Assembly: GCF_054482595.1 (NCBI RefSeq)
Contig: NZ_JBTHVH010000001.1
Length of the DNA stretch: 64,000 bases
From: a plasmid
Strand: one strand, 5' to 3'
The notes below the pieces were generated by a model. It saw only the letters and a program-made list of their open reading frames with translations. It had not been told where the DNA came from and ran no database searches. The translations under genes and the position numbers were made by a program. The stretch's first letter is position 1; every line of letters begins with the position of its first letter. Positions 1 to 13,055 of this stretch are shown piece by piece.

Positions 1-386
1 AGGTTTTCATTTTTGATTACTTCGAACGCAAGCACCCTGACATCTATGAGCTGTTGCATGCAACGCCTAACGGAGGGAAGCGTTCAAAAGCAACCGCCGG
101 GAAAATGAAGGCTGAAGGGCAGAAAAAAGGTTATCCGGACATGAGTCTCGATAAAGCATGCGGTATTTATCACGGCATGCGAATTGAGCTTAAAGAACCA
201 AATGGTAAAGCCCCGACGAAAGAGCAGATCGCCTGGATGCGCAGGCTTAGAGAGGAAGGCTACTACGTTGTTCTTGCGTATGGTGCAGAACAAGCGATTA
301 CCGCCATCCTGGAATACATAAGTCTTAAAAAGGGTGAGGCTATTGAGCATGTATTGAACGGCGATAAGTGGTTGCATGCTGCTTAA
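1..386 (+). CDS. VRR-NUC-like nuclease domain protein, 5' partial (frame open to window start)
   Basis: ORF 54..386 stays open in frame back to position 3; motif region IELKEPNGKAPTKEQIAWMRRLREEGYYVVLAYG resembles VRR-NUC / PD-(D/E)xK fold. Confidence 0.5.
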   Translation, partial: VFIFDYFERKHPDIYELLHATPNGGKRSKATAGKMKAEGQKKGYPDMSLDKACGIYHGMRIELKEPNGKAPTKEQIAWMRRLREEGYYVVLAYGAEQAITAILEYISLKKGEAIEHVLNGDKWLHAA

Positions 387-549
387 AATAATAAATTAAT
401 TAGTGCATGTACGCTCTTTGTGGTAGTGCACTTTAACATCGGGAGAATAATCGTGTCATCCAAGGTTAATTATGAGTCGCTGGCATCGGTCATGCCGCGT
501 AATGAACAGGAAACAGATGCTGTAGTGGACCCTGTAATCGCTGAAATGA

Positions 550-1212
550 ATGCTCGCCTGGAGGCTGAATTTGCAGCTGAGAATGAACATACCACCCAGG
601 GCGACTAGGACTGTTTTTTGTGTCGGTAGCGGTCCGTCACTCACTCGTGAGGACTGTGCTGCTATAGAAAAAACTGGCTGTTCAATCATCGCGGTTAACA
701 ATTCCTGGCAGATGTTCGATGACATTTATGCCTTATACGCCGGTGATTTGTCATGGTGGAAGCAATACGGATCCACCATACCGGGAGGGAGATTCCGCAA
801 AGTGACAGCCAACCTGGCGGCGGCGAAATCATTTTCGTTGGAGTACAGGCGATATTGTGGACCGGCGGAAGGGGTAAATAGCGGCGCGCAGGCTATCAGT
901 CTGGCTGCTGAATCAGGGGCTGAAGTAGTGGTATTAGTCGGCTATGACTGTTCTCTGCAAAACGGCCTTCATTGGCATGGCGCGCACCCTCAAGCACTAC
1001 GGAATCCAACGCAGGTGTCTATTTCAAAATGGCAACAGCAGTTCCTGGATACCCGCAAAAAACACGCAGATTTACATATTTTGAATGCAAGTAGGAGCAG
1101 TGCAATTCAATGTTTCCCAAGAATAAATTTAGAGGCAGTGATCGCGTTATTATCGTCGGCAGTGGCCCAAGCGCCGCAAACTTTGTTGCGCCGCGCGGAG
1201 TGCCGATTATAG
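550..1212 (+). CDS. hypothetical protein with VGSGPS...IIAVNN motif (paralog of next gene); start uncertain
   Basis: 220-aa ORF; FCVGSGPSLTREDCAAIEKTGCSIIAVNNSW parallels the next ORF; pattern reminiscent of DUF115/MptE-like fold (from memory). Confidence 0.45.
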   Translation: MLAWRLNLQLRMNIPPRATRTVFCVGSGPSLTREDCAAIEKTGCSIIAVNNSWQMFDDIYALYAGDLSWWKQYGSTIPGGRFRKVTANLAAAKSFSLEYRRYCGPAEGVNSGAQAISLAAESGAEVVVLVGYDCSLQNGLHWHGAHPQALRNPTQVSISKWQQQFLDTRKKHADLHILNASRSSAIQCFPRINLEAVIALLSSAVAQAPQTLLRRAECRL

Positions 1213-1736
1213 CGGTCAATGGGGCCATCGACTGGCTTAACCGCGCTTCTTATTTTTTCACCCTTGATCCATCCCCAGACAATATGCGGCGCGTTGGTCG
1301 TGGCCGCCGTCGCCGTGGTGTTTGTTATTGCATGGCACTACCCGATGTTAAAGAACGTGAAGTCAGAGATGGCGTTCTGTGCTTCCGTCGTGTGGCTGAA
1401 CGCGGCATGGAGCCAAAAAATACGAATTCTCCCGAGTGGTGGGCGTGGCGCTGGTCCGCACATTTCGGCCTTTGCGAAGATGAGAATGAAATTGCCAGCG
1501 GCAATAGTGCATATGGTGCTCTGAACCTGGCTTTCCATATCGGATTCAAACATGTAGCTCTGGTGGGCGTTGACGCTACGCAAGAACTACGCGTTCACTC
1601 CGGCGGCACGCCAAAAAATCTAAGTCACCTGCCTTTGTTATTCCAGTCTGCGCGTGAACAGATTGACGTTGTTTCATGCGGGAAAATGGGAGGTATTCCG
1701 CAGATGACTCTTAAAGAATGGCTGAAGAATACATGA
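1110..1736 (+). CDS. hypothetical protein with VGSGPS...IIAVNG motif (paralog of previous gene)
   Basis: 208-aa ORF; [29 protein letters not shown]; overlaps the previous ORF by about 100 bp in another frame. Confidence 0.5.
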
Positions 1737-2410
1737 TGGCACCCACAATTTATCACCGTATCGACGGTACCAAATACAGGAATGTCTGGGTTGTTGGTGA
1801 TCTGCATGGTTGCTACACCAGACTGATGTCCGAACTCCATCGTGTGGATTTTGACCCGGCGCAGGATTTACTGATATCGGTCGGCGACCTTATCGATCGC
1901 GGTACTGAAAATGTCGAATGTCTGGAACTATTGCAGATGCCCTGGTTCAGGGCAGTGATGGGGAACCATGAGCGGCTGATGATTGATGCGTTAAGTCCAG
2001 ATGGCAACGTGAATAACTGGCTAATGAATGGCGGACAATGGTTCTTCATGCTGGACACTGATCAGGAAATATTAGCCTGGGCGCTGGTGGAGCTGGTAAA
2101 GCGTCTGCCCTATATCATTGAGTTGAACACGGGGCAAGAAACTATCGTTATAGCCCATGCCGACTATCCGGATAATGAATACCAATTCGGTAAGGAGGTG
2201 CCGCTTTTCAACGTTGTCTGGGCGCGCGAGCGTATCAGTGATTCGATGGATGATATTGGTGGCGAAATTTCGGGCGCAGATCGTTTTATCTTTGGTCACA
2301 CTCCGGTGAAAAGCCCGAAGACATTCTGGAATCAGCAGTATATCGACACTGGTGCCGTATTTTGCGGAAACCTGACATTGATGAAAGTGAAAGGTGATGG
2401 TGCAGCATGA
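1718..2410 (+). CDS. ppp: Ser/Thr protein phosphatase, lambda-PPase/calcineurin-like
   Basis: Metallophosphatase motifs GDLHG, GDLIDRG, GNHE; position matches P1 ppp as recalled; start could be 1733/1736. Confidence 0.8.
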
Positions 2411-3108
2411 AGATTGCTTTAGTTTTTCGCTCTGGTGGTGACTATAACGCTTCCGATGTGCAGTGGCTGGTTAATCAACTGCCAAAAGACTATGAAATTA
2501 TTTGCCTGACAGACCTGAAGTGTTTACATGTACCTGGCGTCAAAGTTATCCCATTGATCAACCAGTGGCAAAAGTGCCGTGGCTGGTGGGCGAAAATCGA
2601 GTTGTTCCGACCGGATATAACCGATGATCTGTTCTATCTGGATTTGGACACGGTTATTGCCGGTGATATACGCCCAATCCTAGAGCATCCACCAACCAGC
2701 TTCACCATGCTTAGGGATTTTTACCATCCACAATATCGTGGCAGCGGTGCCCTGTGGATACCAAATAGTGTTAAAGCGCATATCTGGAGTTCATTCTGGC
2801 AAGATCCGGAAGGTTGGATTTCTCGTTGTGTCACTACTGAGTGCTGGGGTGACCAGGGGTTCTTACGAAAGGTTATGGGCGATGATACACCAGCATTTCA
2901 GGATCTGTATCCAGGATGGTTTGTAAGTTACAAGGCCGATGTTGTGGAACCTGGTTCAAAATATGCGAGCGCGCGTTACTCCAGGGGGAATGGGGCATTA
3001 CCAAAAGACTGCCGAATAATCTTTTTCCACGGCAAACCGCGACCTCGCGAAGTGTCAGAGGATTGGCTTCCCCTTATCAGCTCATTTTTTGAGCGAGAAT
3101 CAGAATAA
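2407..3108 (+). CDS. hypothetical protein (233 aa)
   Basis: ORF with ATGA start/stop overlap to the phosphatase gene; DLD motif, fold not assigned. Confidence 0.55.
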
Positions 3109-3109
3109 T

Positions 3110-3126
3110 ATTGCTCTAATAATTCC
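3110..3126 (+). promoter_or_regulatory. C1 repressor operator-like site
   Basis: ATTGCTCTAATAATTCC vs P1 C1 operator consensus ATTGCTCTAATAAATTT. Confidence 0.6.
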
Positions 3127-3137
3127 ATATTTTTAAA

Positions 3138-3166
3138 ACGTGATGTACACTCATCACGTTTTTTAT
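3138..3166 (+). terminator. Rho-independent terminator-like hairpin
   Basis: stem acgtgatg / catcacgt with 7-nt loop followed by T-run. Confidence 0.5.
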
Positions 3167-3175
3167 TAGAGCAAT
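3159..3175 (-). promoter_or_regulatory. C1 operator-like site (inverted)
   Basis: ttttttattagagcaat, reverse complement resembles operator consensus; forms inverted pair with 3110..3126. Confidence 0.45.
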
Positions 3176-3189
3176 CTACAAGGTGCACT

Positions 3190-3408
3190 ATGTGGCCATT
3201 CCGACGGAAATATCACTACTGGCTGATCGCCTTTGTTACGCCGACCGGCGGTATCAGGCATGTCATCACCAGGTATCGCAACAAGAGACTCACCTTAGCC
3301 AGAATTTTACAGGCTGCCATAGGTGAGGGACTGGATACAAATTGCGTAGTCCTTCCTCCTTCATACTTAGGAAAAATGACCGAAGCACAAGCTAATACGG
3401 AACTTTGA
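3190..3408 (+). CDS. hypothetical small protein (72 aa)
   Basis: ORF directly downstream of operator pair; weak SD. Confidence 0.4.
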   Translation: MWPFRRKYHYWLIAFVTPTGGIRHVITRYRNKRLTLARILQAAIGEGLDTNCVVLPPSYLGKMTEAQANTEL

Positions 3409-3409
3409 A

Positions 3410-4672
3410 ATGAGCACTTCAGCACAAAACCAATCAATCGAAAATGTATGTATCCCTGATGTCCTGAATGCCGGTATCCCGGCCATTATCCAGAACATCC
3501 GGGCCGCGCAACGCCGCGTTAGTTGTGATGACCTCACAGCACGTTTTTTTGATAATGCGGTTCAGTCAGCGGAGATGCTTCACGCACAGCTTATTGATGT
3601 TTATAACGCAGAAGCTGATAGCCATAACTCCCTGGTAGATGCAGCTGAAAATATGCAGTTGGATCTCGGTCTGAAGGGTAAAGAAATTGAAGAGCTTCAG
3701 CTGCAAATTGAACATTTGAAACGCCAGCAACAGGACGCGATCGACGATGCGACGCATGACGCCAACCAGCGTGCTGATAATGCCGAACGTATAAGCATTG
3801 AGCTGGAAACAAAACTCAATGAAATGACCGCGATGGTTGAACTGCGGAACTCACAGATTTCAACGCTAAAATCTCAATATAAAGAGATCATGAAACTTGA
3901 TCCTTTTAACCTTGAGAAACGCTATAACAAAGCTAAAAGCGAGCGACAGGAACTGCGTAAGCAGGTCGCCGACCTTAACCAACAGCTCAAAAAAACTATT
4001 AAAGATGCAAGCGAAGCGCGCGTGGCATTTGCTAATAAAAAAGCAGAGGTTACCGCGCTGGTTAATGAGAATGCCAAATTTGCGACGCTCAAGAAGGAAA
4101 TGTATGGCATTACTGAGCGCCGTTTCCCTGCAAGCAAACTTCATCCGACGTTAGGGCAAATCTCCTTCTTCCCGCGCCTCCTGGCTTATGGGATCTCATC
4201 GCCTAAAGAGTTCAATAACGAGCGTCCTTATATCGTTTCTAAACTGGACTTTGCTTATCAGTTCTGCTGCGACATGGGCTATGCCATTGATATCCGAATC
4301 AACGAATGGTTGATGCCAAACTTCCAGCCGCTGGCCATTTTCCGCGAGTTCCAGCCGGAAGGTTGGGTAGAGTTCTTCCATGAATTGATCTGTAAAGAGA
4401 TGGAAAGCCGCCGCCCGGAACTGGTCCGCCGTGTCGAGTGGGCGCAAGAGGTTATGTTGGCAGATGCAGAGCTGCCGTTCGAACCGGAATTTATTGATGA
4501 TCTGGCAGCTAAAGGGCTGCATACCCTGTTTGATGTGGTTACCCGCCGTCATGAGCAGTTGGTTGTCGAATTGGGTTTAGAGGAAACAGCGGCAAGAAGA
4601 CTTCTCGATGTTTGCTATGCACGTAGCGATGCATGGGAAAAAGAGAACGGCGGCACTATTTACGTTCGCTGA
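3410..4672 (+). CDS. coiled-coil protein (420 aa)
   Basis: Long ORF, heptad-rich central region (EELQLQIEHLKRQQQ...), followed by terminator. Confidence 0.6.
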   Translation: MSTSAQNQSIENVCIPDVLNAGIPAIIQNIRAAQRRVSCDDLTARFFDNAVQSAEMLHAQLIDVYNAEADSHNSLVDAAENMQLDLGLKGKEIEELQLQIEHLKRQQQDAIDDATHDANQRADNAERISIELETKLNEMTAMVELRNSQISTLKSQYKEIMKLDPFNLEKRYNKAKSERQELRKQVADLNQQLKKTIKDASEARVAFANKKAEVTALVNENAKFATLKKEMYGITERRFPASKLHPTLGQISFFPRLLAYGISSPKEFNNERPYIVSKLDFAYQFCCDMGYAIDIRINEWLMPNFQPLAIFREFQPEGWVEFFHELICKEMESRRPELVRRVEWAQEVMLADAELPFEPEFIDDLAAKGLHTLFDVVTRRHEQLVVELGLEETAARRLLDVCYARSDAWEKENGGTIYVR

Positions 4673-4693
4673 CAGTTACAGTGTCACTTTTAA

Positions 4694-4728
4694 TGCTGGT
4701 GGAGTGCGCCCACCAGCATTTTTTTCGT
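4694..4728 (+). terminator. Rho-independent terminator
   Basis: gctggtgg agtgcgc ccaccagc hairpin followed by attttttt. Confidence 0.55.
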
Positions 4729-4744
4729 CCAATGAGGAGGGCAT

Positions 4745-5251
4745 TTGAGTATTTTCAATAAACACGCACACCAGGAACGTCCGTATATCGTCATAGTTGA
4801 TATTGATGGAACAATATCAGAGGCAACTGAAGACAGACTGCATTTGCTTCCGCCACCAGGTAAAGGTGCATTAACAAAGGACTGGAACGAGTTTAATCTC
4901 GCCTGTGACACCGATACTCCCATCACTCCAGTTATTGATATGGTGCGCCAGTTATTTAACGTTTACACGGTCTGGTTTGTAACCGGGCGCTGTGAGATCG
5001 CAAGGGATAAAACACGAGCCTGGCTGCGGAAGTACGTAACAAACGGGGCTGAGCCTTTGCTATCTATGCGTCCTGCCACCGATGACAGAAATGACGGCCC
5101 AGCAAAGATTGATCTCCTTAAGAAAATTGGTCTAAGTAAAATCGCGTTCGCGCTGGAAGATAAGATTGAAGTGGCGCGTGTTTTCAGGAGGCACGGCGTG
5201 CTTACGTTAATGGTCAGGGAGTATGAAAATGCGCTTCTTCATCAACAATGA
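4745..5251 (+). CDS. HAD-superfamily phosphatase/nucleotidase-like protein
   Basis: TTG start with AGGAGG SD; VDIDGTI (DxDGT) motif near N-terminus. Confidence 0.6.
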   Translation: MSIFNKHAHQERPYIVIVDIDGTISEATEDRLHLLPPPGKGALTKDWNEFNLACDTDTPITPVIDMVRQLFNVYTVWFVTGRCEIARDKTRAWLRKYVTNGAEPLLSMRPATDDRNDGPAKIDLLKKIGLSKIAFALEDKIEVARVFRRHGVLTLMVREYENALLHQQ

Positions 5252-5267
5252 TTGCTCTAATAAATCT
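5251..5267 (+). promoter_or_regulatory. C1 operator-like site
   Basis: ATTGCTCTAATAAATCT, 16/17 match to consensus. Confidence 0.65.
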
Positions 5268-5349
5268 TGATTTTTAAAACGGAGAAAGTGAAAATAAAAA
5301 CATGCCGCAAGGCGCGGCATGTATCCAATCAATCACAGGAGCTGAAAAT

Positions 5350-5436
5350 ATGAACACGGCATTCAAAATCATTATGGCCGCGATCTATTTCTGGCTGTTC
5401 TCTATCACTTTTGGCGGCATCGTCGCACATGGGTAA
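5350..5436 (+). CDS. candidate small hydrophobic peptide (28 aa)
   Basis: AGGAG SD 7 nt upstream of ATG; MNTAFKIIMAAIYFWLFSITFGGIVAHG; below the ORF-track size cutoff. Confidence 0.3.
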   Translation: MNTAFKIIMAAIYFWLFSITFGGIVAHG

Positions 5437-5445
5437 GGGGGATGC

Positions 5446-6174
5446 ATGAAAGGCGAAGTGAAAGAGCGCGGCATGATTTTCAACGATGAGATGGTCCGGG
5501 CCATCCTCGAAGGAAGGAAAACGCAGACGCGGCGGATAATGAAAAATCAGCCTGCGGAAGTTGGTCCAGAAGCACCAGTGATGGTTAGAAAAATTGGTGC
5601 AGGTTTTCAGTGGTACGGGGCTGATGGTGTAAGCAGTGTTTTCAATTGCCCATTTGGTATCGTCGGCGATCGAATTTGGGTTCGTGAAACATGGGCGATA
5701 TTAGGCAATGAGGATGGTTGCAGTGTGGACTGGAACGACAACCTTTGTCGTGGCGATGAGAAGAACGCAGCAAGGATTTATCGGGCCAGTTGCGAGCAAA
5801 AACCTGGTGATTACGGCTTATGGTCGATACCCGATGATGCCGACTGGAAACCTCACACTGTGAATGAAAAGTTTGATGGTGGGTGGCGTCCATCAATTCA
5901 CATGCCGCGATGGGCATCACGCATTCTGTTGGAAATTACCAACGTGCGCGTTGAACGGTTGAACGATATCAGCGAATGCGATGCAAGGGCTGAGGGCGTT
6001 CCGCCTGCTGGAAGTTTGCTTCCTGATCACCCGGGAACATTCCTTACTCCCAAGGGGGATTTCGCAATGGCCAAGGTTGCGTTCCAGCGCCTGTGGGAAT
6101 CCATCTATGGTGAAGAAAGCTGGAACGCTAATCCCTGGGTGTGGGTAATCGAGTTTAAGCGCATTCAGGAATAA
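5446..6174 (+). CDS. ASCH-like domain protein (242 aa)
   Basis: N-terminal FNDEMVRAILEGRKTQTRR resembles ASCH/PUA-like motif; good SD. Confidence 0.5.
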   Translation: MKGEVKERGMIFNDEMVRAILEGRKTQTRRIMKNQPAEVGPEAPVMVRKIGAGFQWYGADGVSSVFNCPFGIVGDRIWVRETWAILGNEDGCSVDWNDNLCRGDEKNAARIYRASCEQKPGDYGLWSIPDDADWKPHTVNEKFDGGWRPSIHMPRWASRILLEITNVRVERLNDISECDARAEGVPPAGSLLPDHPGTFLTPKGDFAMAKVAFQRLWESIYGEESWNANPWVWVIEFKRIQE

Positions 6175-6177
6175 ACC

Positions 6178-7056
6178 GTGAGTATGCATCAAGTCGTCAG
6201 CTTTTCAGGTGGACGAACATCGGCTTATCTCGTTCATCTGATGGAAGCACAGCGAAAAGCTGGCGCTAGCGTCCATTTCATTTTTATGGATACCGGCTGT
6301 GAACATCCTCTGACGTATCGCTTTATTCGTGAGGTTGTGAAGTTCTGGAACGTACCGCTAACGGTGTTGCAGGTCGATATAAATCCAGAACTTGGGCAGC
6401 CAAATGGTTATACGGAATGGGAACCAAAGGATATTCAGACGCGAATGCCGGTGCTTAAACCGTTTATGGACATGGTTAAAAAGTACGGTACGCCATACAT
6501 CGGCGGCGCGTTCTGTACCGACAGGCTAAAACTCACCCCTTTCACGAAATATTGCGATGACCATTTTGGGCGAGGGAATTACATCACATGGCTCGGTATT
6601 CGTGCGGACGAACCCCGTAGGCTGAAACCGAAACCGGGCGTCCGGTATCTTGCCGAACTGTCAGATTTTGATAAGTCGGATGTTATCCGGTGGTGGCGAA
6701 AACAACCTTTTGATTTGCAAATCCCGGAGCACCTCGGGAACTGTGTTTTTTGCATCAAAAAGTCAACGCAAAAGCTGGGGCTTGCATGTAAAGACGAACC
6801 AGGTCTGATGCGGGTTTTTAATGAACTGGTTACAGGCAAACACGTCAGGGATGGTCATCGCAGAACAGGTAAAGACGTTATGTACCGTGGCCACCTGACG
6901 CTTGACGGGATTGCCAGAATGTATGCCGACAGTGACTACAGAAATTTGTATCAGGCGATGGTGCTGGCCAAGCGGTTTGATACTGGTTCGTGTTCCGAAT
7001 CATGTGAAATCTGGGGTGACCAATTGGAGTTGAAATTCGAAGAGGTAGTGGAATGA
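6178..7056 (+). CDS. PAPS reductase-like PP-loop ATPase family protein
   Basis: SGGxxS PP-loop motif VSFSGGRTSAY; 292 aa. Confidence 0.75.
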   Translation: MSMHQVVSFSGGRTSAYLVHLMEAQRKAGASVHFIFMDTGCEHPLTYRFIREVVKFWNVPLTVLQVDINPELGQPNGYTEWEPKDIQTRMPVLKPFMDMVKKYGTPYIGGAFCTDRLKLTPFTKYCDDHFGRGNYITWLGIRADEPRRLKPKPGVRYLAELSDFDKSDVIRWWRKQPFDLQIPEHLGNCVFCIKKSTQKLGLACKDEPGLMRVFNELVTGKHVRDGHRRTGKDVMYRGHLTLDGIARMYADSDYRNLYQAMVLAKRFDTGSCSESCEIWGDQLELKFEEVVE

Positions 7057-7256
7057 CAATCGTAAAAACCCATACCGGTACCGTGATCACCAAAGATGGC
7101 CCGAAGGTAAAAAAACTGCACCAAACAGAGCGGATGTGGGTCGTTGGCAAAAACGAGTTTTACCACAAAGAAACTGGACGCCGCCACTTTGCAGAAAATA
7201 CGCGCCGTCGACTGCTGTTAGACACCATCAAGCCTATCGAGGTGAAGCATGTTTAA
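7053..7256 (+). CDS. hypothetical small protein (67 aa)
   Basis: ATGA overlap with upstream gene suggests translational coupling. Confidence 0.45.
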   Translation: MTIVKTHTGTVITKDGPKVKKLHQTERMWVVGKNEFYHKETGRRHFAENTRRRLLLDTIKPIEVKHV

Positions 7257-7488
7257 ACAGAACGAAAAGGCTATCGCTCAAATTGCTGATTATATCCCGC
7301 GTGCGTGCCGGGGTATGCAGTTGCAGGAAGCCAAAGCGCGCCTGGAGAAAAAAATTGCGCTCTATATTGATGACGGCTGTGATGCTGCTGTTCTTAACGC
7401 AGCGTTCGCGCCAGCTCTTAACAGTCATACGCGGGAGTCTTTTTTTTCGCGCATCGCAGCGCAGATCCGTAAAGGAGGCAACCAGTGA
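7249..7488 (+). CDS. hypothetical small protein (79 aa)
   Basis: ORF overlapping stop of previous gene. Confidence 0.45.
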   Translation: MFKQNEKAIAQIADYIPRACRGMQLQEAKARLEKKIALYIDDGCDAAVLNAAFAPALNSHTRESFFSRIAAQIRKGGNQ

Positions 7489-8132
7489 GCAAGATTGATT
7501 ATCAAAAGCTTCGTGAAATCGCTGAAAAAACAAAAATTGCTGGTGAAGCACCTGTAATGCCTTTCGATCAGCGAATTAATGCGCTTAACGATTTTATGAA
7601 GCACTTTTCGCCAGATATCGCGCTGGCATTGTTGGATGAACGGGAAAGAAACCAGCAATACATCAAACGCCGCGACCAGGAGAACGAGGAAATTGCGCTA
7701 ACGGTAGGGAAGCTGCGTGTTGAGCTGGAAGGCAAAGACAGCAAAATAGCCAATCTTACCGCCGAACGCGATGCTCTTCGTGAAGGTGAGATGGGCGACG
7801 CTAGGCATAGCAACACACGGGCCGCAGCTGATATCTACTTCCAACTGGTCGAGGAGTGCGAAATTCCTGCTGGCGGATCTCTGGTCGAGTACGTTGACGA
7901 TATGCGCGAGAAGCTGGAAGCCGCAGAGAAGCGCATTGCAGAGTTAGAAAGTGGTTCTCAGGCACAAAAGTTAGTTGAAGCAATCATTGTTGCGATAGAA
8001 AACGAACAGGAAAGGCTTTTTGATGAAGATTACCTAATGGATTCGAAAGAATGCATTGACGTAATTCGTGAAGAAGTAAAGCGATGGAATGATTCCCGTG
8101 CCGCTGGCATTCGCATCAACGGAGGTGAGTAG
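7485..8132 (+). CDS. coiled-coil protein (215 aa)
   Basis: GTG start with AGGAGG SD; heptad-rich. Confidence 0.55.
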   Translation: MSKIDYQKLREIAEKTKIAGEAPVMPFDQRINALNDFMKHFSPDIALALLDERERNQQYIKRRDQENEEIALTVGKLRVELEGKDSKIANLTAERDALREGEMGDARHSNTRAAADIYFQLVEECEIPAGGSLVEYVDDMREKLEAAEKRIAELESGSQAQKLVEAIIVAIENEQERLFDEDYLMDSKECIDVIREEVKRWNDSRAAGIRINGGE

Positions 8133-8304
8133 TGCGTGTGGCATGTATCGGCTTGTTACCGTACCCGACTCGTTTTTGGGCTTCTGCGCTAATTGCAAAG
8201 CCACATGTCCTGATGGCTGACAACATCATCCCGGCACCAAAGCGCCGCCATACCGGTATTGCAGCGGCACGACGAGCAGCAAAGAGACGCAGGAGAGCAA
8301 AGCG

Positions 8305-8493
8305 ATGAAAAACCGTAAAGCAAAGATTCTGTTAGTTCGTAGAAACGCTCCTGGCGTCTGGCAGTGGGTGAGACTCAGCAACCGACGGATGGGGTTAATG
8401 AAACATTACGGGATGATGGATTGTGGTTTTTGCAAAAAGCCCAGCGCGGCGCAAAACCGCTGGAAAAACCACTTGCGCACTAAAGGAGAGTGA
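8305..8493 (+). CDS. hypothetical small basic protein (62 aa)
   Basis: AGGAGA SD upstream of ATG. Confidence 0.35.
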   Translation: MKNRKAKILLVRRNAPGVWQWVRLSNRRMGLMKHYGMMDCGFCKKPSAAQNRWKNHLRTKGE

Positions 8494-8495
8494 TA

Positions 8496-9010
8496 TGGCG
8501 TTAACACACCGCGAACTCTGTCAGATTGCGTACAAGTTCCTTAAGCGCAACGGGTTCAAGGTTTGTTTTCATGACCGCTTTATAGCTGTAACCAGTACCG
8601 GAGAACAGCCAGATGCTATGGGATTCAGAAATTCAGCATCATGCCTGATAGAGGCGAAATGTTCTCGTGCTGACTTGTTGGCAGATAGAAAAAAGCGTTT
8701 TCGTAAAAATCCGTCTCTTGGAATGGGCGACTGGCGATTCTTTATTAGTGAGCCGGGAATTATTTCAATTGAGGATTTACCACCTGGCTGGGGATTACTT
8801 CACGTTGTTAACGGAAGAGTACGGAAAGTACATGGGTGGCCCAAGGGTAATTGCTGTTGGGGTAATCCTGACGATAAGCCATTTACTGGAAATAAGCAGG
8901 TTGAATGCGATTACATGTTATCTGCATTAAGGCGCATGGAGTTAAGAGGGCACCTTAATGAAATATATGACGGTGTAATTGTTAATAAGAAAGAAGGAAA
9001 CGCGGCATGA
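8496..9010 (+). CDS. hypothetical protein (171 aa), possible PD-(D/E)xK-like fold
   Basis: ATG with AAGGAGAG SD (ORF-track ORF 8423..9010 trimmed to this start); motif CLIEAKCSRAD. Confidence 0.5.
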
Positions 9011-9915
9011 TCACTATTACCAAAGAGCGACTACTGACAATCAAGCAGTGGCGCGAAACATACGGACCTGGTAGCAACGTTGTACTGCCAGCAGAAGAAG
9101 CGGAAGAACTGGCACGAATTGCTCTGGCATCGCTGGAGCAGAATGTACTATCGGGCAACTCTCCGCTTATTCCTGGTGAAGTGTTGTCCGCAATCCGGGA
9201 GGTTGCCAGGATTCGTGCCGATTTCGATGATTTTGACGGTGACAGGCGAGGTATCGGTGATTGTCTGGATGAGGCCGAGCAAGAGCTTATCGTTACCATT
9301 AACAAATATGCCAGTCAGTTGGCAGCAGAACCGATAGCGACTAATGACGTTCGAGAGCAAACAGCCGTTCCGCCAATACAGGCTGATGTCGCGCAAGCAA
9401 TTGAAAATCTCAAGCAGAAGTTAGTGGAATGCAATCGCTATAACTACTGCGCAGATGCAGTGAAGAACGTAGAGGATGCCTGCCGTGCTGTTAGCTATAG
9501 CCAAGCCGACAATCAGCCAGCATCTGGCAACCAGGCTGCCGAATCCAATCGCGGTAATGAGTGGACTGGCAATCCTGATATTGATAACGCCATCATCATG
9601 CTCGACCGCATAGATACGCTGGAAAATTGCGATGATGACCGTATTGAGGCTGTTAAGGCTGTTTTGCGTAGACTGGCTGGCAACTCTCCGGTAACTCCGG
9701 ATGGTTGGATAAGCTGTAGTGAGCGAATGCCGGATACCAAAACAGCCGTTCTTGTTGCCAGGGAGTTTGACAGGAAAGGTGACTGGCGAATGAAATGGGC
9801 GACTTACATCCCGGGGCATCCTGACGCTAATGATGGGTGGGTAATACCTGGTGCGTCGTGGATTCCATCACACTGGATGCCGCTACCAGAACCGCCGCAG
9901 GAGGTGAATCAATGA
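9007..9915 (+). CDS. hypothetical protein with DUF551-like C-terminus
   Basis: 302 aa; C-terminal DGWISCSERMPD...HWMPLPEPP resembles DUF551. Confidence 0.55.
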   Translation: MITITKERLLTIKQWRETYGPGSNVVLPAEEAEELARIALASLEQNVLSGNSPLIPGEVLSAIREVARIRADFDDFDGDRRGIGDCLDEAEQELIVTINKYASQLAAEPIATNDVREQTAVPPIQADVAQAIENLKQKLVECNRYNYCADAVKNVEDACRAVSYSQADNQPASGNQAAESNRGNEWTGNPDIDNAIIMLDRIDTLENCDDDRIEAVKAVLRRLAGNSPVTPDGWISCSERMPDTKTAVLVAREFDRKGDWRMKWATYIPGHPDANDGWVIPGASWIPSHWMPLPEPPQEVNQ

Positions 9916-9979
9916 GCTGGCCTGAAGCATTCACCACGGTAGGAATTGTGATGGCGGCAGCACTGGGTTTGTATTCAAT

Positions 9980-10231
9980 TTGTCGCTGGTGGTAACGATG
10001 GGAAAAATAACTTTTGTAGTCGAATTTGAGGATGGCAAAGAGCCACCTGTTAGCGCCAATCTTGATGTTGCTGGTGGCAGGCTTGTTTCGGTTCTATTTG
10101 GTGACTACCGAGATGACTTCTTCCAACCAGAAGAAGTTGATGTAGTGCGAGAGGCATTAAACGAGTTAAGTGTTGATAACGATGATGCTCATGCGGAAAT
10201 CATCCAAAAAATGGAACTGCTAACTCACTAA
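9980..10231 (+). CDS. hypothetical small acidic protein
   Basis: ORF only; start uncertain. Confidence 0.35.
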   Translation: MSLVVTMGKITFVVEFEDGKEPPVSANLDVAGGRLVSVLFGDYRDDFFQPEEVDVVREALNELSVDNDDAHAEIIQKMELLTH

Positions 10232-10279
10232 ATTATCAATTATGGTGCTATCACCTACGACACCGAGAGAAAATTTATA

Positions 10280-10402
10280 ATGTCAAAAGTAAATGTTTTG
10301 ATTTTTTCAGCAATTGTTGGCTTTGGTTTTACTGCCGGAGTGCAGATTTATATTACGTGGGAAAAAATCATCAACTACGCATGGAGTTGTTTTATTAAGT
10401 GA
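10280..10402 (+). CDS. candidate small membrane peptide (40 aa)
   Basis: MSKVNVLIFSAIVGFGFTAGVQIYITWEKIINYAWSCFIK; hydrophobic; below ORF-track cutoff. Confidence 0.25.
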   Translation: MSKVNVLIFSAIVGFGFTAGVQIYITWEKIINYAWSCFIK

Positions 10403-10409
10403 GGTAAGT

Positions 10410-10703
10410 ATGTGGAGAGGTAATAGTCATGGCAAAAGCCAGATGATACTTACCGAATATCAGTTTGACCATAAAACCAATAAATCACGTTCAGTATATT
10501 TGCTTCGGCACAATAGCCGCGTAAGGAATACCGTGCTGGAGCAAAATCTGACTGTTGAAATAGATAGTTACGGGGGCTTCAAGCCAACAATTTCGCTTGA
10601 TGATTTTCCTCGTGGTTTAAGCGAAAGAGAAGCAATGCTGAAATTAGCAGAATGGCTACAAAGATTAAGCATTGCTATTGAAGATAACTGGTCTGAACCT
10701 TAA
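10410..10703 (+). CDS. hypothetical protein
   Basis: ATG with GAGGTAAG SD inside ORF-track ORF 10314..10703. Confidence 0.4.
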   Translation: MWRGNSHGKSQMILTEYQFDHKTNKSRSVYLLRHNSRVRNTVLEQNLTVEIDSYGGFKPTISLDDFPRGLSEREAMLKLAEWLQRLSIAIEDNWSEP

Positions 10704-10709
10704 ATTTAT

Positions 10710-11084
10710 ATGATGACACTAAAACATTTTCTTGACCGCCCATTATGGGCGGCAGCCGCAGGCTATGACTTTAATTATATGGATTGCATGTCTTATACCG
10801 CCAATGCATACGACTATTCCTTCAGTCTGCTGCTTAATTCTTTAAGAATATTGCCGCAAACAGAAGTTGGAGAGCTTCATTTATGGCTATTGGGCTTTAT
10901 CGCGGCTGTCGTTGGTATTGCTGTATGGCCTTTTATTTTCTGGCTGGTGGCTGTTGTAGTGTGGTTTAAGTGCAAGACATACCGGAAAAAGTATTTCTTA
11001 GGTGATGGAATGACTGATATTGCCAAAATGAACATTGAAGAATGGACTAAGGAATGTGAAAAGAAATGGCGCAAAAAGAAATGA
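10710..11084 (+). CDS. putative membrane protein (124 aa)
   Basis: hydrophobic segment LWLLGFIAAVVGIAVWPFIFWLVAVVVWF. Confidence 0.5.
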   Translation: MMTLKHFLDRPLWAAAAGYDFNYMDCMSYTANAYDYSFSLLLNSLRILPQTEVGELHLWLLGFIAAVVGIAVWPFIFWLVAVVVWFKCKTYRKKYFLGDGMTDIAKMNIEEWTKECEKKWRKKK

Positions 11085-11923
11085 CCAGAATAACTGAAGA
11101 GCGCATATCAGAGATTATTTCCCGTATCGAAATGTATGGTCACGGTGCTGGATATACGGCAGATGAAGGATTGGAAATAGCCCAGCAGATGCTGGCCTTG
11201 AGACAAAAAGAGCAACATGAAAGTAATACGTGTAGATTGAATTTTGAGCATTGGCTGGAACAGCAACGCGGAAAAATCGATGTGGACTGTGGTTGTGTGT
11301 CCACTGAAACATTCATGCACTGGCTGTGGGTAGCTTACGAGGCTGGCAACTATCCGGATATTCCGGATAGTTCGGTGCCAGCGCCAGGAAAGGGCGTCAC
11401 CGGTGAACGTATCCGCATTAAGCCGCATGTTTATCGCGAACTGGTTAACCGTCTCCACGATACAGCGATCAAGTGTGCTGGCACCCAGCAATTACGAGAA
11501 AGAATTAGCCGTGTTTTGGGCGACGTTATTACACCAGATCATCATAAACAAGCCGAGAAAAGTGACCTGGAAAGGTGTCACCTTGAGGCGGCATTAAACA
11601 TTAAGCCGGGGCATACGCTTGGCATTATTGATGCACTATTGGTTCATAAGATGGCCAGGGCTTTATTGCCGCTGGTGGCTGAAAAAGAGAACGCGAGCCT
11701 CAAAAAAATGCTGTCGCGGGCGGAAAGGGAATTATCAGGCAAATTATTGCCAGAAGAACTGCCACCAGCAGATATACCAGATCGAGTGTCCCAGTGGATG
11801 AAGTCTTTTGGTTTGCCGTGGGAGGCTTTTTGGTGCTACGACCATCGCAGATGGTGTGATGAACTTGATAGCAATTTTCCCTACTTTGCGGAAGGGAACA
11901 CCTGCCCTCAATGCAGGGGATAG
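11066..11923 (+). CDS. hypothetical protein (285 aa)
   Basis: ORF; C-terminal CPQCRG Cys motif. Confidence 0.55.
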   Translation: MAQKEMTRITEERISEIISRIEMYGHGAGYTADEGLEIAQQMLALRQKEQHESNTCRLNFEHWLEQQRGKIDVDCGCVSTETFMHWLWVAYEAGNYPDIPDSSVPAPGKGVTGERIRIKPHVYRELVNRLHDTAIKCAGTQQLRERISRVLGDVITPDHHKQAEKSDLERCHLEAALNIKPGHTLGIIDALLVHKMARALLPLVAEKENASLKKMLSRAERELSGKLLPEELPPADIPDRVSQWMKSFGLPWEAFWCYDHRRWCDELDSNFPYFAEGNTCPQCRG

Positions 11924-12258
11924 CATTTGACGAAATCGATCACCCTATCCTGAACTTCAGAAAGAAGGTCTTTTTCACGCGCCAGGACGTCAGGATATTG
12001 ACGTTCTGGCCTTACCAGATGCCGGAGCTTCCCATTAAGCAGAATGGCCTCAGAAAACACTTTTACGCTGTGCTTTATCCCCTCTGTTTCACTTTTCAGC
12101 GTCAAAATAAAGCGCAATTGCTTATTAGCCTGATTCGGATTCAATACACGAATTTGCAGTTCGTCTATGCTGTTTCGCAATGGGATTGATGCCACCACAC
12201 TGGTGCAGTCTCTGATTGTCTGAATTGAACGGCTAACATTGAGAACGTTATTGTGCAT
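11908..12258 (-). CDS. hypothetical ORF (116 aa), uncertain
   Basis: Only minus-strand ORF in an otherwise plus-strand block; weak SD. Confidence 0.25.
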   Translation of the reverse strand: MHNNVLNVSRSIQTIRDCTSVVASIPLRNSIDELQIRVLNPNQANKQLRFILTLKSETEGIKHSVKVFSEAILLNGKLRHLVRPERQYPDVLAREKDLLSEVQDRVIDFVKCYPLH

Positions 12259-12290
12259 GTGCCTGATCCACTAACTCCTGGAGGTTTCTT

Positions 12291-12542
12291 GTGTCAGATC
12301 GAAATATAGCAGCTAAAAGCCAGGAAGAGCGAGACAAGGTGAACGTAGACCTTGCCGCCAGCGGCGTTGCTTACAAAGAACGGCTGAATATACCTGTGAT
12401 TGCAGAGCAGGTGGCCCGTGAGCAACCGGAAAACCTGCGCGCCTATTTCATGGAACGGCTACGGCACTACCGGCAGTTAAGCCTCCAGTTGCCAAAAGGG
12501 AGCGATCCGGTGTATCAGAACGAGGATGCACCAAAAAAATAA
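12291..12542 (+). CDS. hot: DNA polymerase III theta-subunit homolog
   Basis: [36 protein letters not shown] aligns with E. coli HolE; GTG start with GGAGG SD. Confidence 0.85.
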
Positions 12543-12629
12543 CGGCAAGATGGGGGAGAAATGTGATTAGCCCCCAGCGTGGCGCGCCTACAAACCCCGC
12601 TTTCACAAACTATGCCTTTTCAATGTATA

Positions 12630-12645
12630 CTGTATGAATAAACAG
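12630..12645 (+). promoter_or_regulatory. LexA (SOS) box upstream of humD
   Basis: CTGTATGAATAAACAG matches CTGT-N8-ACAG. Confidence 0.6.
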
Positions 12646-12665
12646 TATCATTGAGGTAAAACGCT

Positions 12666-13055
12666 ATGGGCTTCCCTTCTCCTGCGGCGGATTATGTTGA
12701 AAGCCGAATTTCTCTTGATCAGCAGATAATTAGACATCCTTCAGCGACCTACTTCATGCGGGCAGCTGATAGCCATCACCGTGAGGGAATATTGCAGGGT
12801 GCTTTGCTGGTGGTTGATTCCTCGCTTACTCCGGTTGATGGTTCTCTGCTTGTGTGCGCTATGGAGGGTGAATATCGCATAAAGAGATACAGGAAGTATC
12901 CGCGCCAGCACCTGGAGGACTTAAGCACCGGGAAGAAAGAGGCGTTACCAGTAGATGACGATGGATACACGGGCAGTAATGCTGTTTTTGGTGTGATCAC
13001 TCATGTCATCAATGATGCCCGAAGTGGGGAATTTGATGATTGTCCGGTTATTTAA
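12666..13055 (+). CDS. humD: UmuD'-like S24 peptidase-family SOS mutagenesis protein
   Basis: GFPSPAADYVE...HPSATYF... aligns with UmuD; 129 aa as P1 HumD. Confidence 0.85.
   Translation: MGFPSPAADYVESRISLDQQIIRHPSATYFMRAADSHHREGILQGALLVVDSSLTPVDGSLLVCAMEGEYRIKRYRKYPRQHLEDLSTGKKEALPVDDDGYTGSNAVFGVITHVINDARSGEFDDCPVI

Follow-up and report, generated by a model that had tools for sequence, protein, structure and literature searches.

The pap, pmgT and ninC genes of a P1-like phage-plasmid: a PNKP-type phosphatase, an ASCH-fold protein and a NinC orthologue

Described relatives of the three genes

In bacteriophage P1, the genes pap and pmgT (P1_gp094 and P1_gp095) are accompanied by the C1 repressor operator OpmgT, formerly Op88. 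Using CRISPRi, the P1 genes pap and pmgT and the lambda gene ninC were found to be non-essential (PMC10695390). [quoted passage not shown]

The phosphatase domains of T4 Pnkp and Capnocytophaga Pnkp1 adopt the HAD DxDxT fold of the PNKP subfamily, as does pap, but pap has neither the polynucleotide kinase domain nor the associated ligase. Escherichia coli YqfB is an N4-acetylcytidine amidohydrolase of 103 amino acids with an ASCH fold (PDB 9kyf/1te7). The K21A, T24A, and R26A mutants of YqfB are inactive, and the activity of the E74A mutant is lower by 100- to 1000-fold (PMC6972931). In one study, 19 of the 19 ASCH proteins tested were shown to deacetylate ac4C in tRNA (bioRxiv 10.64898/2026.02.27.708502).

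Lambda NinC (lambdap64) and the Stx2-phage protein annotated as NinC (e.g., VT2phi_272 ADU03694) share a PP-loop and six cysteines with the NinC described here, and the phosphorothioation sulfurtransferases DndC and SspD have the N-terminal PP-loop domain in common with it. The genomic settings differ, with ninC found in the nin region of lambda (flanked by ninB and ninD), in the early-left region of Stx phages, and here in a P1-type phage-plasmid behind a predicted C1-controlled promoter. The PAPS-Dam gene of Vibrio phage 44E38.1 (p0018), when moved with its neighbor p0019, confers anti-Dnd activity (bioRxiv 10.1101/2021.05.05.442762). That transfer combined the PAPS-Dam gene with a second gene, and the share of the PAPS domain itself was not isolated.

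A P1-like locus at the edge of the hypervariable region

The window, the whole stretch of 64,000 nucleotides that was analyzed, derives from a P1-like phage-plasmid. Positions 1–6140 are 99% identical to P1 at the nucleotide level and span pap and pmgT, and the P1 gene order, operator, and predicted promoters are retained. Three co-oriented open reading frames on the plus strand, at 4745–5251 (168 amino acids), 5446–6174 (242 amino acids), and 6178–7056 (292 amino acids), correspond to pap, a pmgT-like gene, and ninC, respectively. These are genuine, widely conserved genes, and chance open reading frames are excluded. A small unannotated open reading frame on the same strand (5302–5436, 44 amino acids) encodes a hydrophobic product and is kept in P1-like loci. 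Its status is uncertain, and it may instead start from the ATG at 5350 that follows AGGAG, giving 28 amino acids.

A mosaic accessory block of 5.2 kb (6141–11334, plus strand) is missing from reference P1 and is internally deleted in other P1-like phages. It contains the 3′ end of pmgT, ninC, orf67, orf79, an Ead/Ea22-like gene, a gene for a DUF551 protein, and others. The start of orf67 (7053–7256, plus strand) overlaps the preceding stop in the ATGA at 7053–7056, and the start of orf79 (7249–7488, plus strand) likewise overlaps the stop before it; both accompany ninC in Stx phages. The published hypervariable region of P1-like plasmids extends from pmgT onward (PMC9603915), and the three genes are placed where the conserved pmgR-pmgS-pap backbone joins this region. 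The earlier note had allowed that they may be conserved P1 backbone genes. This holds for pap, a near-backbone gene of the P1-like phages, but not for pmgT, which opens the hypervariable region, or for ninC, a lambdoid mosaic gene that is foreign to P1. No tRNA genes were found in a tRNA scan of the window.

A C1 operator had been noticed between the first and second genes, and it was located at 5251–5267 (plus strand; ATTGCTCTAATAAATCT) with one mismatch to the consensus, as the counterpart of the annotated P1 operator OpmgT/Op88. The window contains 11 sites of such quality versus 0.3 expected by chance. The predicted sigma-70 promoters P2pmgT and P1pmgT (5252–5295, plus strand) overlap the operator; their coordinates were transferred from the P1 annotation, and they were not recovered by a separate promoter scan of the window. 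A terminator-like hairpin with an 11-bp stem followed by a T-run is found between pmgS and pap (4692–4720, plus strand). The operator and the predicted promoters set pap apart from pmgT. Because pap lies upstream of these elements and downstream of the hairpin, the arrangement points to pap as its own cistron in another transcription unit. The gap between pmgT and ninC is 3 nt, and these two genes and those that follow probably share transcription from the predicted, C1-repressed PpmgT promoters. On this reading of the DNA sequence, the unit would be off in the lysogen and on at induction, when the lifting of C1 repression would enable PpmgT to turn on pmgT, ninC, and the genes beyond.

Identity and predicted chemistry of the three proteins

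The position and length of pap match those of the annotated P1 gene within the 99%-identical block. The sequence DIDGT (residues 19–23) had led to the assignment of the first gene as a HAD phosphatase, and this was borne out. Pfam HAD_PNKP (PF25109) reaches 46.5 bits over residues 53–158, above its cutoff of 27.6 (E = 5e-12), and the four HAD motifs were located at D19-x-D21-G-T23 (I), T80 (II), K121 (III), and E138-D139 (IV). PHROG 415, labeled polynucleotide kinase, also matches pap (E = 6e-57). Among PDB entries, pap is closest to the phosphatase domain of Pnkp1 (4xrp), a weak match (E = 2e-4) in which motifs II–IV are aligned. No kinase domain was found in pap: there is no Walker A motif, and the profile match is confined to the phosphatase part. 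A bifunctional polynucleotide kinase-phosphatase of the T4 Pnkp type is ruled out by the missing domain. As a stand-alone PNKP-type HAD phosphatase, pap would strip 3′-phosphates from nucleic-acid ends or from 3′-nucleotides via an aspartyl-phosphate on D19.

PmgT is an ASCH-fold protein with an active site of the YqfB (GKTR) type. The ASCH beta-barrel is seen in the structural evidence, and the octapeptide G23-RKTQTR-R30 aligns with GRKTITIR of YqfB. Residues K25, T28, R30, and E183 align with K21, T24, R26, and E74 of YqfB, respectively, with E183 placed on E74 by an ungapped block alignment, so that both the G-x-K-x-x-T-x-R motif and the E74-equivalent acidic residue of the type are present. 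All 80 homologues of PmgT share K25, R30, and E183, and conservation of T28 is at least 90%. PmgT has Asp in place of YqfB H70, and YqfB Y89 is not kept across the family. The 242 residues of PmgT, compared with the 103 of YqfB, include two large insertions, at roughly residues 32–75 and 87–157, that total about 115 residues.

No matches to the PmgT of the window were obtained from the Pfam, NCBIfam, or PADLOC profiles, Pfam ASCH (PF04266) included, and among 80 family members 42 have weak matches only to Pfam ASCH, the best with an E-value of 1.2e-4. The profile built from the 80 homologues matched nothing among all PDB sequences at E ≤ 1. Alignment of this profile with YqfB by hhalign covered 22 columns only, in the region of the octapeptide, with 15% probability, and BLASTP of the C-terminal half of PmgT against YqfB gave no match. 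When the two proteins were aligned globally at a low cost of gap extension, the central part of the protein was misaligned (z = 3.2). Since sequence-profile methods alone miss the ASCH domain, the call rests on structure, motif, and the ungapped block alignment. The ASCH-like domain proposed for the second gene was therefore recovered by fold and GKTR motif, and the HMM searches suggested as a check supported pap and NinC above their cutoffs but not PmgT.

In the proposed mechanism, Lys25 of PmgT would serve as the base, Thr28 as the nucleophile, Glu183 as the acid, and Arg30 as the oxyanion hole. The predicted reaction is removal of the N-acyl group of an acylated cytosine-like base, which would belong to a nucleoside, to tRNA (ac4C), or perhaps to DNA. 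Literature searches found no functional study of PmgT or of ASCH proteins in phage anti-defense. Intact PmgT is a member of PHROG 874, a prophage family that is very large (some 45,000 clusters at 50% identity) and functionally unannotated.

The window carries the intact 242-residue form of PmgT, with the C-terminus ...NPWVWVIEFKRIQE, whereas PmgT of P1 (309 amino acids) is a deletion fusion that is without the last ASCH strand and has a 78-residue out-of-frame tail. A clean microhomology was not found at the P1 deletion junction, and only TGTGGGTA is common to both end regions. The reference P1 copy is a shortened fusion, and P1 knockouts are therefore uninformative on intact pmgT. P1 is fully viable though it lacks ninC and carries this truncated pmgT.

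The historical P1 annotation, in which pmg denotes putative morphogenetic, speaks for a role in virion morphogenesis, and the likelihood of such a role is in our estimate close to nil. The fold and motifs are enzymatic rather than structural, both pmgT and pap proved dispensable under CRISPRi (PMC10695390), and the pmgT of reference P1 is truncated. The virion-associated proteins listed in the available part of PMC9024508 include neither gene product. A morphogenetic role for the genes was rejected on the enzymatic fold and the non-essentiality.

The third gene (6178–7056; the PGAP start is the ATG at 6184) is an orthologue of lambda ninC. The protein is 79–80% identical to lambda NinC over 98% of its length and 96% identical to NinC of Stx phages, and it is matched by PHROG 424 (E = 4e-93). 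It belongs to the PAPS-reductase/adenine-nucleotide alpha-hydrolase superfamily. The PP-loop and PAPS-reductase-like character noted previously was confirmed by the sequence S8-F-S-G-G-R-T-S15 and by a match to Pfam PAPS_reduct (PF01507; 37.7 bits, cutoff 22.5) that covers residues 6–72 only. The above-cutoff profile together with SGGxxS places NinC in the PP-loop ATP pyrophosphatase superfamily. The PP-loop is invariant, as are six cysteines (C113, C126, C189, C192, C272, and C276).

The C-terminal catalytic Cys motif of CysH is ECGLH. The C-terminus of NinC is GSCSESCE, without ECGLH, and the score against the CysH equivalog PRK02090 (NCBIfam) is 21.9 bits, far short of its cutoff of 154. 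A genuine PAPS reductase of sulfate assimilation, that is, an auxiliary metabolic gene as the PHROG label has it, was rejected on the basis of the canonical PP-loop, the missing CysH motif, and an equivalog score that is far too low. With the PADLOC profiles, NinC was matched by SspD (E = 2e-13) in its N-terminal half only and by DndC (E = 5e-4). NinC is not a true DndC or SspD, as it scores 17.8 bits with TIGR03183 against a cutoff of 290.4, and no DndA/D/E or SspA/B/C partners were found among the open reading frames neighboring ninC. NinC domains are recurrently fused to Dam methyltransferase, and the PAPS domain of 44E38.1 p0018 is 55% identical to the NinC of the window, which lacks the fused methyltransferase. 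From its sequence, NinC is a predicted PP-loop ATP pyrophosphatase of the DndC/SspD-like branch with a probable Cys-ligated metal or Fe-S site. It would adenylate its substrate in preparation for the transfer of sulfur or nitrogen, and it may act on DNA in counter-defense against phosphorothioate-based (Dnd/Ssp-type) immunity.

Linkage of the genes and alternative readings

The three genes show no conserved linkage. In the plasmid records of PLSDB, pap was found 590 times, this pmgT allele 162 times, ninC 64 times, and the contiguous trio 34 times; the trio is present in 38 of 1404 matching E. coli genomes. The comparison of synteny across P1-like genomes, proposed as a check, showed the genes to be largely unlinked, with ninC missing from P1 itself and deleted to a remnant in phage 813R1 and the IMG/VR loci L005 and L006, which keep pmgT. 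Lambda and Stx phages contain ninC without pap or pmgT. Outside the P1-like phages, pap was never found beside PmgT-like or NinC-like genes in the loci surveyed: within 6 kb of a PmgT-like gene, a NinC-like gene was present in 3 of 76 non-P1 loci and pap in 0 of 76.

The earlier note read the three genes as one concerted pathway of nucleotide or nucleic-acid modification, and they are indeed consecutive, co-oriented, and all predicted to encode nucleic-acid- or nucleotide-directed enzymes. This reading, which we hold to be highly improbable, is largely refuted by the missing linkage in the plasmid records and beyond the P1-like phages. It is further opposed by the location of pap, with the operator and predicted promoters downstream and the hairpin upstream, and by the full viability of P1 without ninC and with a truncated pmgT. 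We conclude that pap, pmgT, and ninC are probably independent, dispensable accessory enzymes that stand side by side at the edge between backbone and variable region.

Another reading joins only pmgT and ninC, without pap, as a functional pair, with both genes transcribed together from the C1-controlled promoter and both products directed at one nucleic-acid substrate. As one possibility, NinC would install or hijack a modification, and the ASCH hydrolase would remove or read a base mark, countering modification- or phosphorothioate-dependent defense. The genes follow each other in one orientation, only 3 nt apart, and the pair is present at 87–92% nucleotide identity in four divergent P1-family loci (L093–L096) that are without pap. 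An independent case is an unrelated lambdoid prophage (L072), where a PmgT-like gene of 44% protein identity is followed by a NinC-like gene of 30% identity, the stop of the first overlapping the start of the second. These adjacencies suggest that some functional coupling of the two genes is possible. PmgT-like genes in lambdoid prophages often adjoin MT-A70-type or Dam-type methyltransferases (20 of 80 loci), and together with the NinC-Dam fusions this indicates that both families keep the company of DNA-modification genes. However, a PmgT-like gene is missing within 6 kb in 68 of 80 close NinC loci, and a NinC-like gene is missing over the same distance in 73 of the 76 non-P1 loci with a PmgT-like gene. 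Furthermore, 813R1, L005, and L006 retain pmgT with ninC deleted, and ninC of lambda is located between ninB and ninD. Both families inhabit the same variable early regions, and chance adjacency is therefore expected now and then. We consider a functional pair doubtful and the independence of the genes the better account.

It is unlikely that PmgT and NinC form a recurrent counter-defense pair that jointly rewrites nucleic-acid modification. In such a pair, NinC might, for example, direct phosphorothioate-type or amidation chemistry at the phage DNA, and the ASCH enzyme would take an N4-acyl mark off either DNA or host tRNA (ac4C34). If this were true and the mark were on host tRNA, PmgT would be a phage-encoded epitranscriptome eraser.

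A tRNA-directed toolkit, which would reprogram or repair the tRNA pool in lytic growth, is very unlikely. PmgT would erase ac4C34 on host tRNA-Met, NinC would act on a tRNA base in the manner of TilS or TtuA, and pap would heal the 3′-phosphate ends of cleaved tRNA. The deacetylation of tRNA ac4C by every ASCH protein tested favors this proposal, as does the origin of the closest solved relative of pap in the RNA-repair enzyme Pnkp1. Against it, the recurrent fusion partner of NinC is a DNA methyltransferase and its sole experimental link is to DNA defense (Dnd), pap is without a kinase domain, no RNA ligase gene was found in the flanks surveyed (window positions 2400–12700), and the window is without tRNA genes. 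The same lack of gene linkage counts against it.

The three genes are already catalogued, and the locus is ordinary, with little that is new; its practical value is in annotation. The label of putative morphogenetic misleads for pmgT, the intact product of which is an ASCH-fold protein with an active site of the YqfB type. Similarly, ninC, a classic orphan gene of lambda, encodes a PP-loop/Cys enzyme, the sole experimental link of which is to anti-Dnd counter-defense. The three-gene module is not worth pursuing as a unit, but PmgT and NinC are testable leads for the biology of phage counter-defense or tRNA modification.

Layout of the locus

Three co-oriented open reading frames of 168, 242, and 292 residues were found at 4745–7056, which confirms the consecutive genes of the earlier note. 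The window is 99% identical to P1 over positions 1–6140 (megablast, phage genomes), and ORF1 (4745–5251, plus strand) and ORF2 (5446–6174, plus strand) are P1 pap and P1 pmgT. ORF3 (6178–7056, plus strand) is missing from P1; it shares 80% identity with lambda NinC and 96% with the "NinC" of Stx2 phages, and Stx phage VT2phi_272 matches window positions 6179–7533 at 92% nucleotide identity. All three genes are already catalogued, as P1 pap, P1 pmgT, and lambda ninC.

The C1 operator proposed between the first and second genes was also found. This site, OpmgT in the P1 annotation (formerly Op88; ATTGCTCTAATAAATCT), lies at 5251–5267 with one mismatch to the consensus, and the window contains 11 operator-type sites versus 0.3 expected by chance. 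The predicted promoters P2pmgT and P1pmgT overlie the operator according to the same annotation, and neither was recovered by a simple promoter scan. The pap gene is located upstream of the operator and these promoters, and a strong terminator-like hairpin is found between pmgS and pap at 4692–4720. With the hairpin upstream and the operator downstream, pap is therefore set apart from the genes that follow it.

The gap between the operator and pmgT also contains a small unannotated ORF (5302–5436) that would encode 44 residues, or 28 residues (MNTAFKIIMAAIYFWLFSITFGGIVAHG) from an ATG at 5350 that is preceded by AGGAG. The product is hydrophobic and is 98–100% conserved in four P1-like loci (L005–L007 and L032). 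A terminator-like element on the minus strand (5300–5322) consists of a GC-rich hairpin of 10 bp and a T-run, but no minus-strand gene lies nearby; the plus-strand copy of this stretch overlaps the beginning of the small ORF.

Assignment of the three proteins

The HAD phosphatase, ASCH-like, and PP-loop PAPS-reductase-like domains proposed earlier for the three products were all found to be correct. ORF1 scored 46.5 bits against Pfam HAD_PNKP (cutoff 27.6) and matched PHROG 415, "polynucleotide kinase," with an E value of 6e-57. The translation shows each of the four HAD motifs (D19-x-D21-G-T23, T80, K121, and E138-D139). Among solved structures the best match is to the phosphatase domain of Pnkp1, an RNA-repair enzyme (4xrp, E 2e-4), with an alignment that spans motifs II–IV. 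Because the kinase domain is absent, "polynucleotide kinase" was rejected as a name for pap, and "3'-phosphatase" would be a fair choice.

ORF2 has no match in Pfam, NCBIfam, or PADLOC and falls in PHROG 874, a function-unknown family; sequence-profile methods alone were insufficient to link PmgT to ASCH. The PmgT family is very large, with 45,690 representatives (50% identity level, E ≤ 1e-3). NCBI labels some members "ASCH domain-containing protein," and Pfam ASCH is weakly matched by 42 of 80 aligned homologues. PmgT carries an N-terminal octapeptide, GRKTQTRR, that aligns with GRKTITIR of YqfB, the N4-acetylcytidine amidohydrolase of E. coli; it is the "GKTR" variant, of the threonine type, that is described in bioRxiv 10.64898/2026.02.27.708502. 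An ungapped block alignment places E183 on E74 of YqfB and the terminal WVIEFK on YVIEFK. K25, R30, and E183 do not vary within the family, and T28 is conserved in at least 90% of members; the K21A, T24A, and R26A mutants of YqfB are inactive, and activity of E74A is reduced 100- to 1000-fold (PMC6972931). Taken together, the octapeptide, the E183/E74 match, the conserved residues, and the YqfB mutants suggest that PmgT is a diverged and probably active ASCH hydrolase of the YqfB type with two large insertions.

ORF3 matched Pfam PAPS_reduct above the cutoff over residues 6–72 only. The NCBIfam equivalog scores for CysH, the true PAPS reductase, and for DndC were far under their cutoffs, and both identities were rejected. 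The top PADLOC match is to SspD (E 2e-13, N-terminal half only), and 30 homologues retain without exception the PP-loop SxSGGRxS, DTG, EH, and six cysteines. Fusions of a phage Dam methyltransferase (PF05869) to a NinC-type PP-loop domain recur (homologous proteins P0363, P0376, P0385, and P0387; viral locus L045, 3490–4941). One such fusion is p0018 of Vibrio phage 44E38.1, whose PAPS domain is 55% identical to ORF3; when p0018 was moved together with its neighbor p0019, the phage escaped the host Dnd system (bioRxiv 10.1101/2021.05.05.442762). A later preprint cites this result as evasion of Dnd promoted by a phage PAPS reductase. The SspD match, the invariant motifs, the Dam fusions, and the anti-Dnd link thus place NinC in the DndC/SspD-like branch of PP-loop enzymes, with a role that would most plausibly be DNA-directed and counter-defensive.

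Linkage of the genes

The concerted modification module suggested in the earlier note is not supported, as relatives mostly carry the genes unlinked and the operator separates pap. Among PLSDB plasmid records, at a coverage of at least 80%, pap was found in 590, this pmgT allele in 162, and ninC in 64; a query spanning the three adjacent genes and their flanks (window 4600–7300) was matched in 34, and the trio occurs in 38 of 1404 matching complete E. coli genomes. In phage 813R1 and the IMG/VR loci L005 and L006, pap and pmgT are kept and ninC is internally deleted. Among 80 viral PmgT-like loci, pap was found only in four P1-likes, and just 3 of the 76 non-P1 loci carry a NinC-like gene no more than 6 kb away; 68 of 80 close NinC orthologue loci have no PmgT-like gene nearby. 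The region from pmgT onward is one of eight hypervariable regions in P1-like phage-plasmids (PMC9603915), and pap, pmgT, and lambda ninC are dispensable (PMC10695390). The five genes that proved essential in a P1 knockout library include neither pap nor pmgT (PMC9024508). The fallback description as P1 backbone genes is half right: it suits pap, which is near-backbone, and fails for the hypervariable stretch from pmgT onward and for ninC.

A weaker case can be made for pmgT and ninC as a functional pair without pap. The two genes are separated by 3 nt in the window and are kept, at 87–92% nucleotide identity and without pap and pmgS, in four divergent P1-family loci (L093–L096). The same order arises independently in a lambdoid prophage (L072, 5998–7547), where the stop of a PmgT-like gene (221 residues, 44% identity) overlaps the start of a NinC-like gene (295 residues, ~30% identity). 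However, occasional adjacency may be explained by a common neighborhood. The usual site of lambdoid-prophage PmgT-like genes is the early-left accessory region, and NinC-like genes inhabit the same variable early region. Across 80 loci (L005–L084), methyltransferases lie upstream within 4 kb, often directly (MT-A70-like in 14, Dam-like in 6), as do RecT/exonuclease genes, and xis/int (excisionase, integrase) lie downstream in 31.

The deletion in reference P1

Homology to P1 halts at window position 6140 and restarts at 11335. Relative to the window genome, P1 NC_005856 carries a 5.2-kb deletion at 85182, equivalent to window 6141–11334. The 8-bp TGTGGGTA was observed near each end of this deletion. 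The 309-residue "PmgT" of P1 consists of the first 231 residues of the ASCH protein and a 78-residue out-of-frame tail from a 285-residue ORF (11066–11923), and it therefore lacks the final strand of the barrel. P1 "pmgU" resembles a 3' remnant of the same ORF. The remainder of the non-P1 block (7485–11923) is typical lambdoid "ea"-region cargo: an Ead/Ea22-like protein (7485–8132), a DUF551 protein (9007–9915), a 124-residue ORF with hydrophobic stretches (10710–11084), the 285-residue ORF, which has no Pfam match, and several small ORFs.

The gain from this analysis is incremental: PmgT is placed at the structural and motif level among the YqfB-type ASCH hydrolases, the pmgT of reference P1 is recognized as a deletion fusion, and ninC is placed beside an experimentally supported anti-Dnd PAPS domain.
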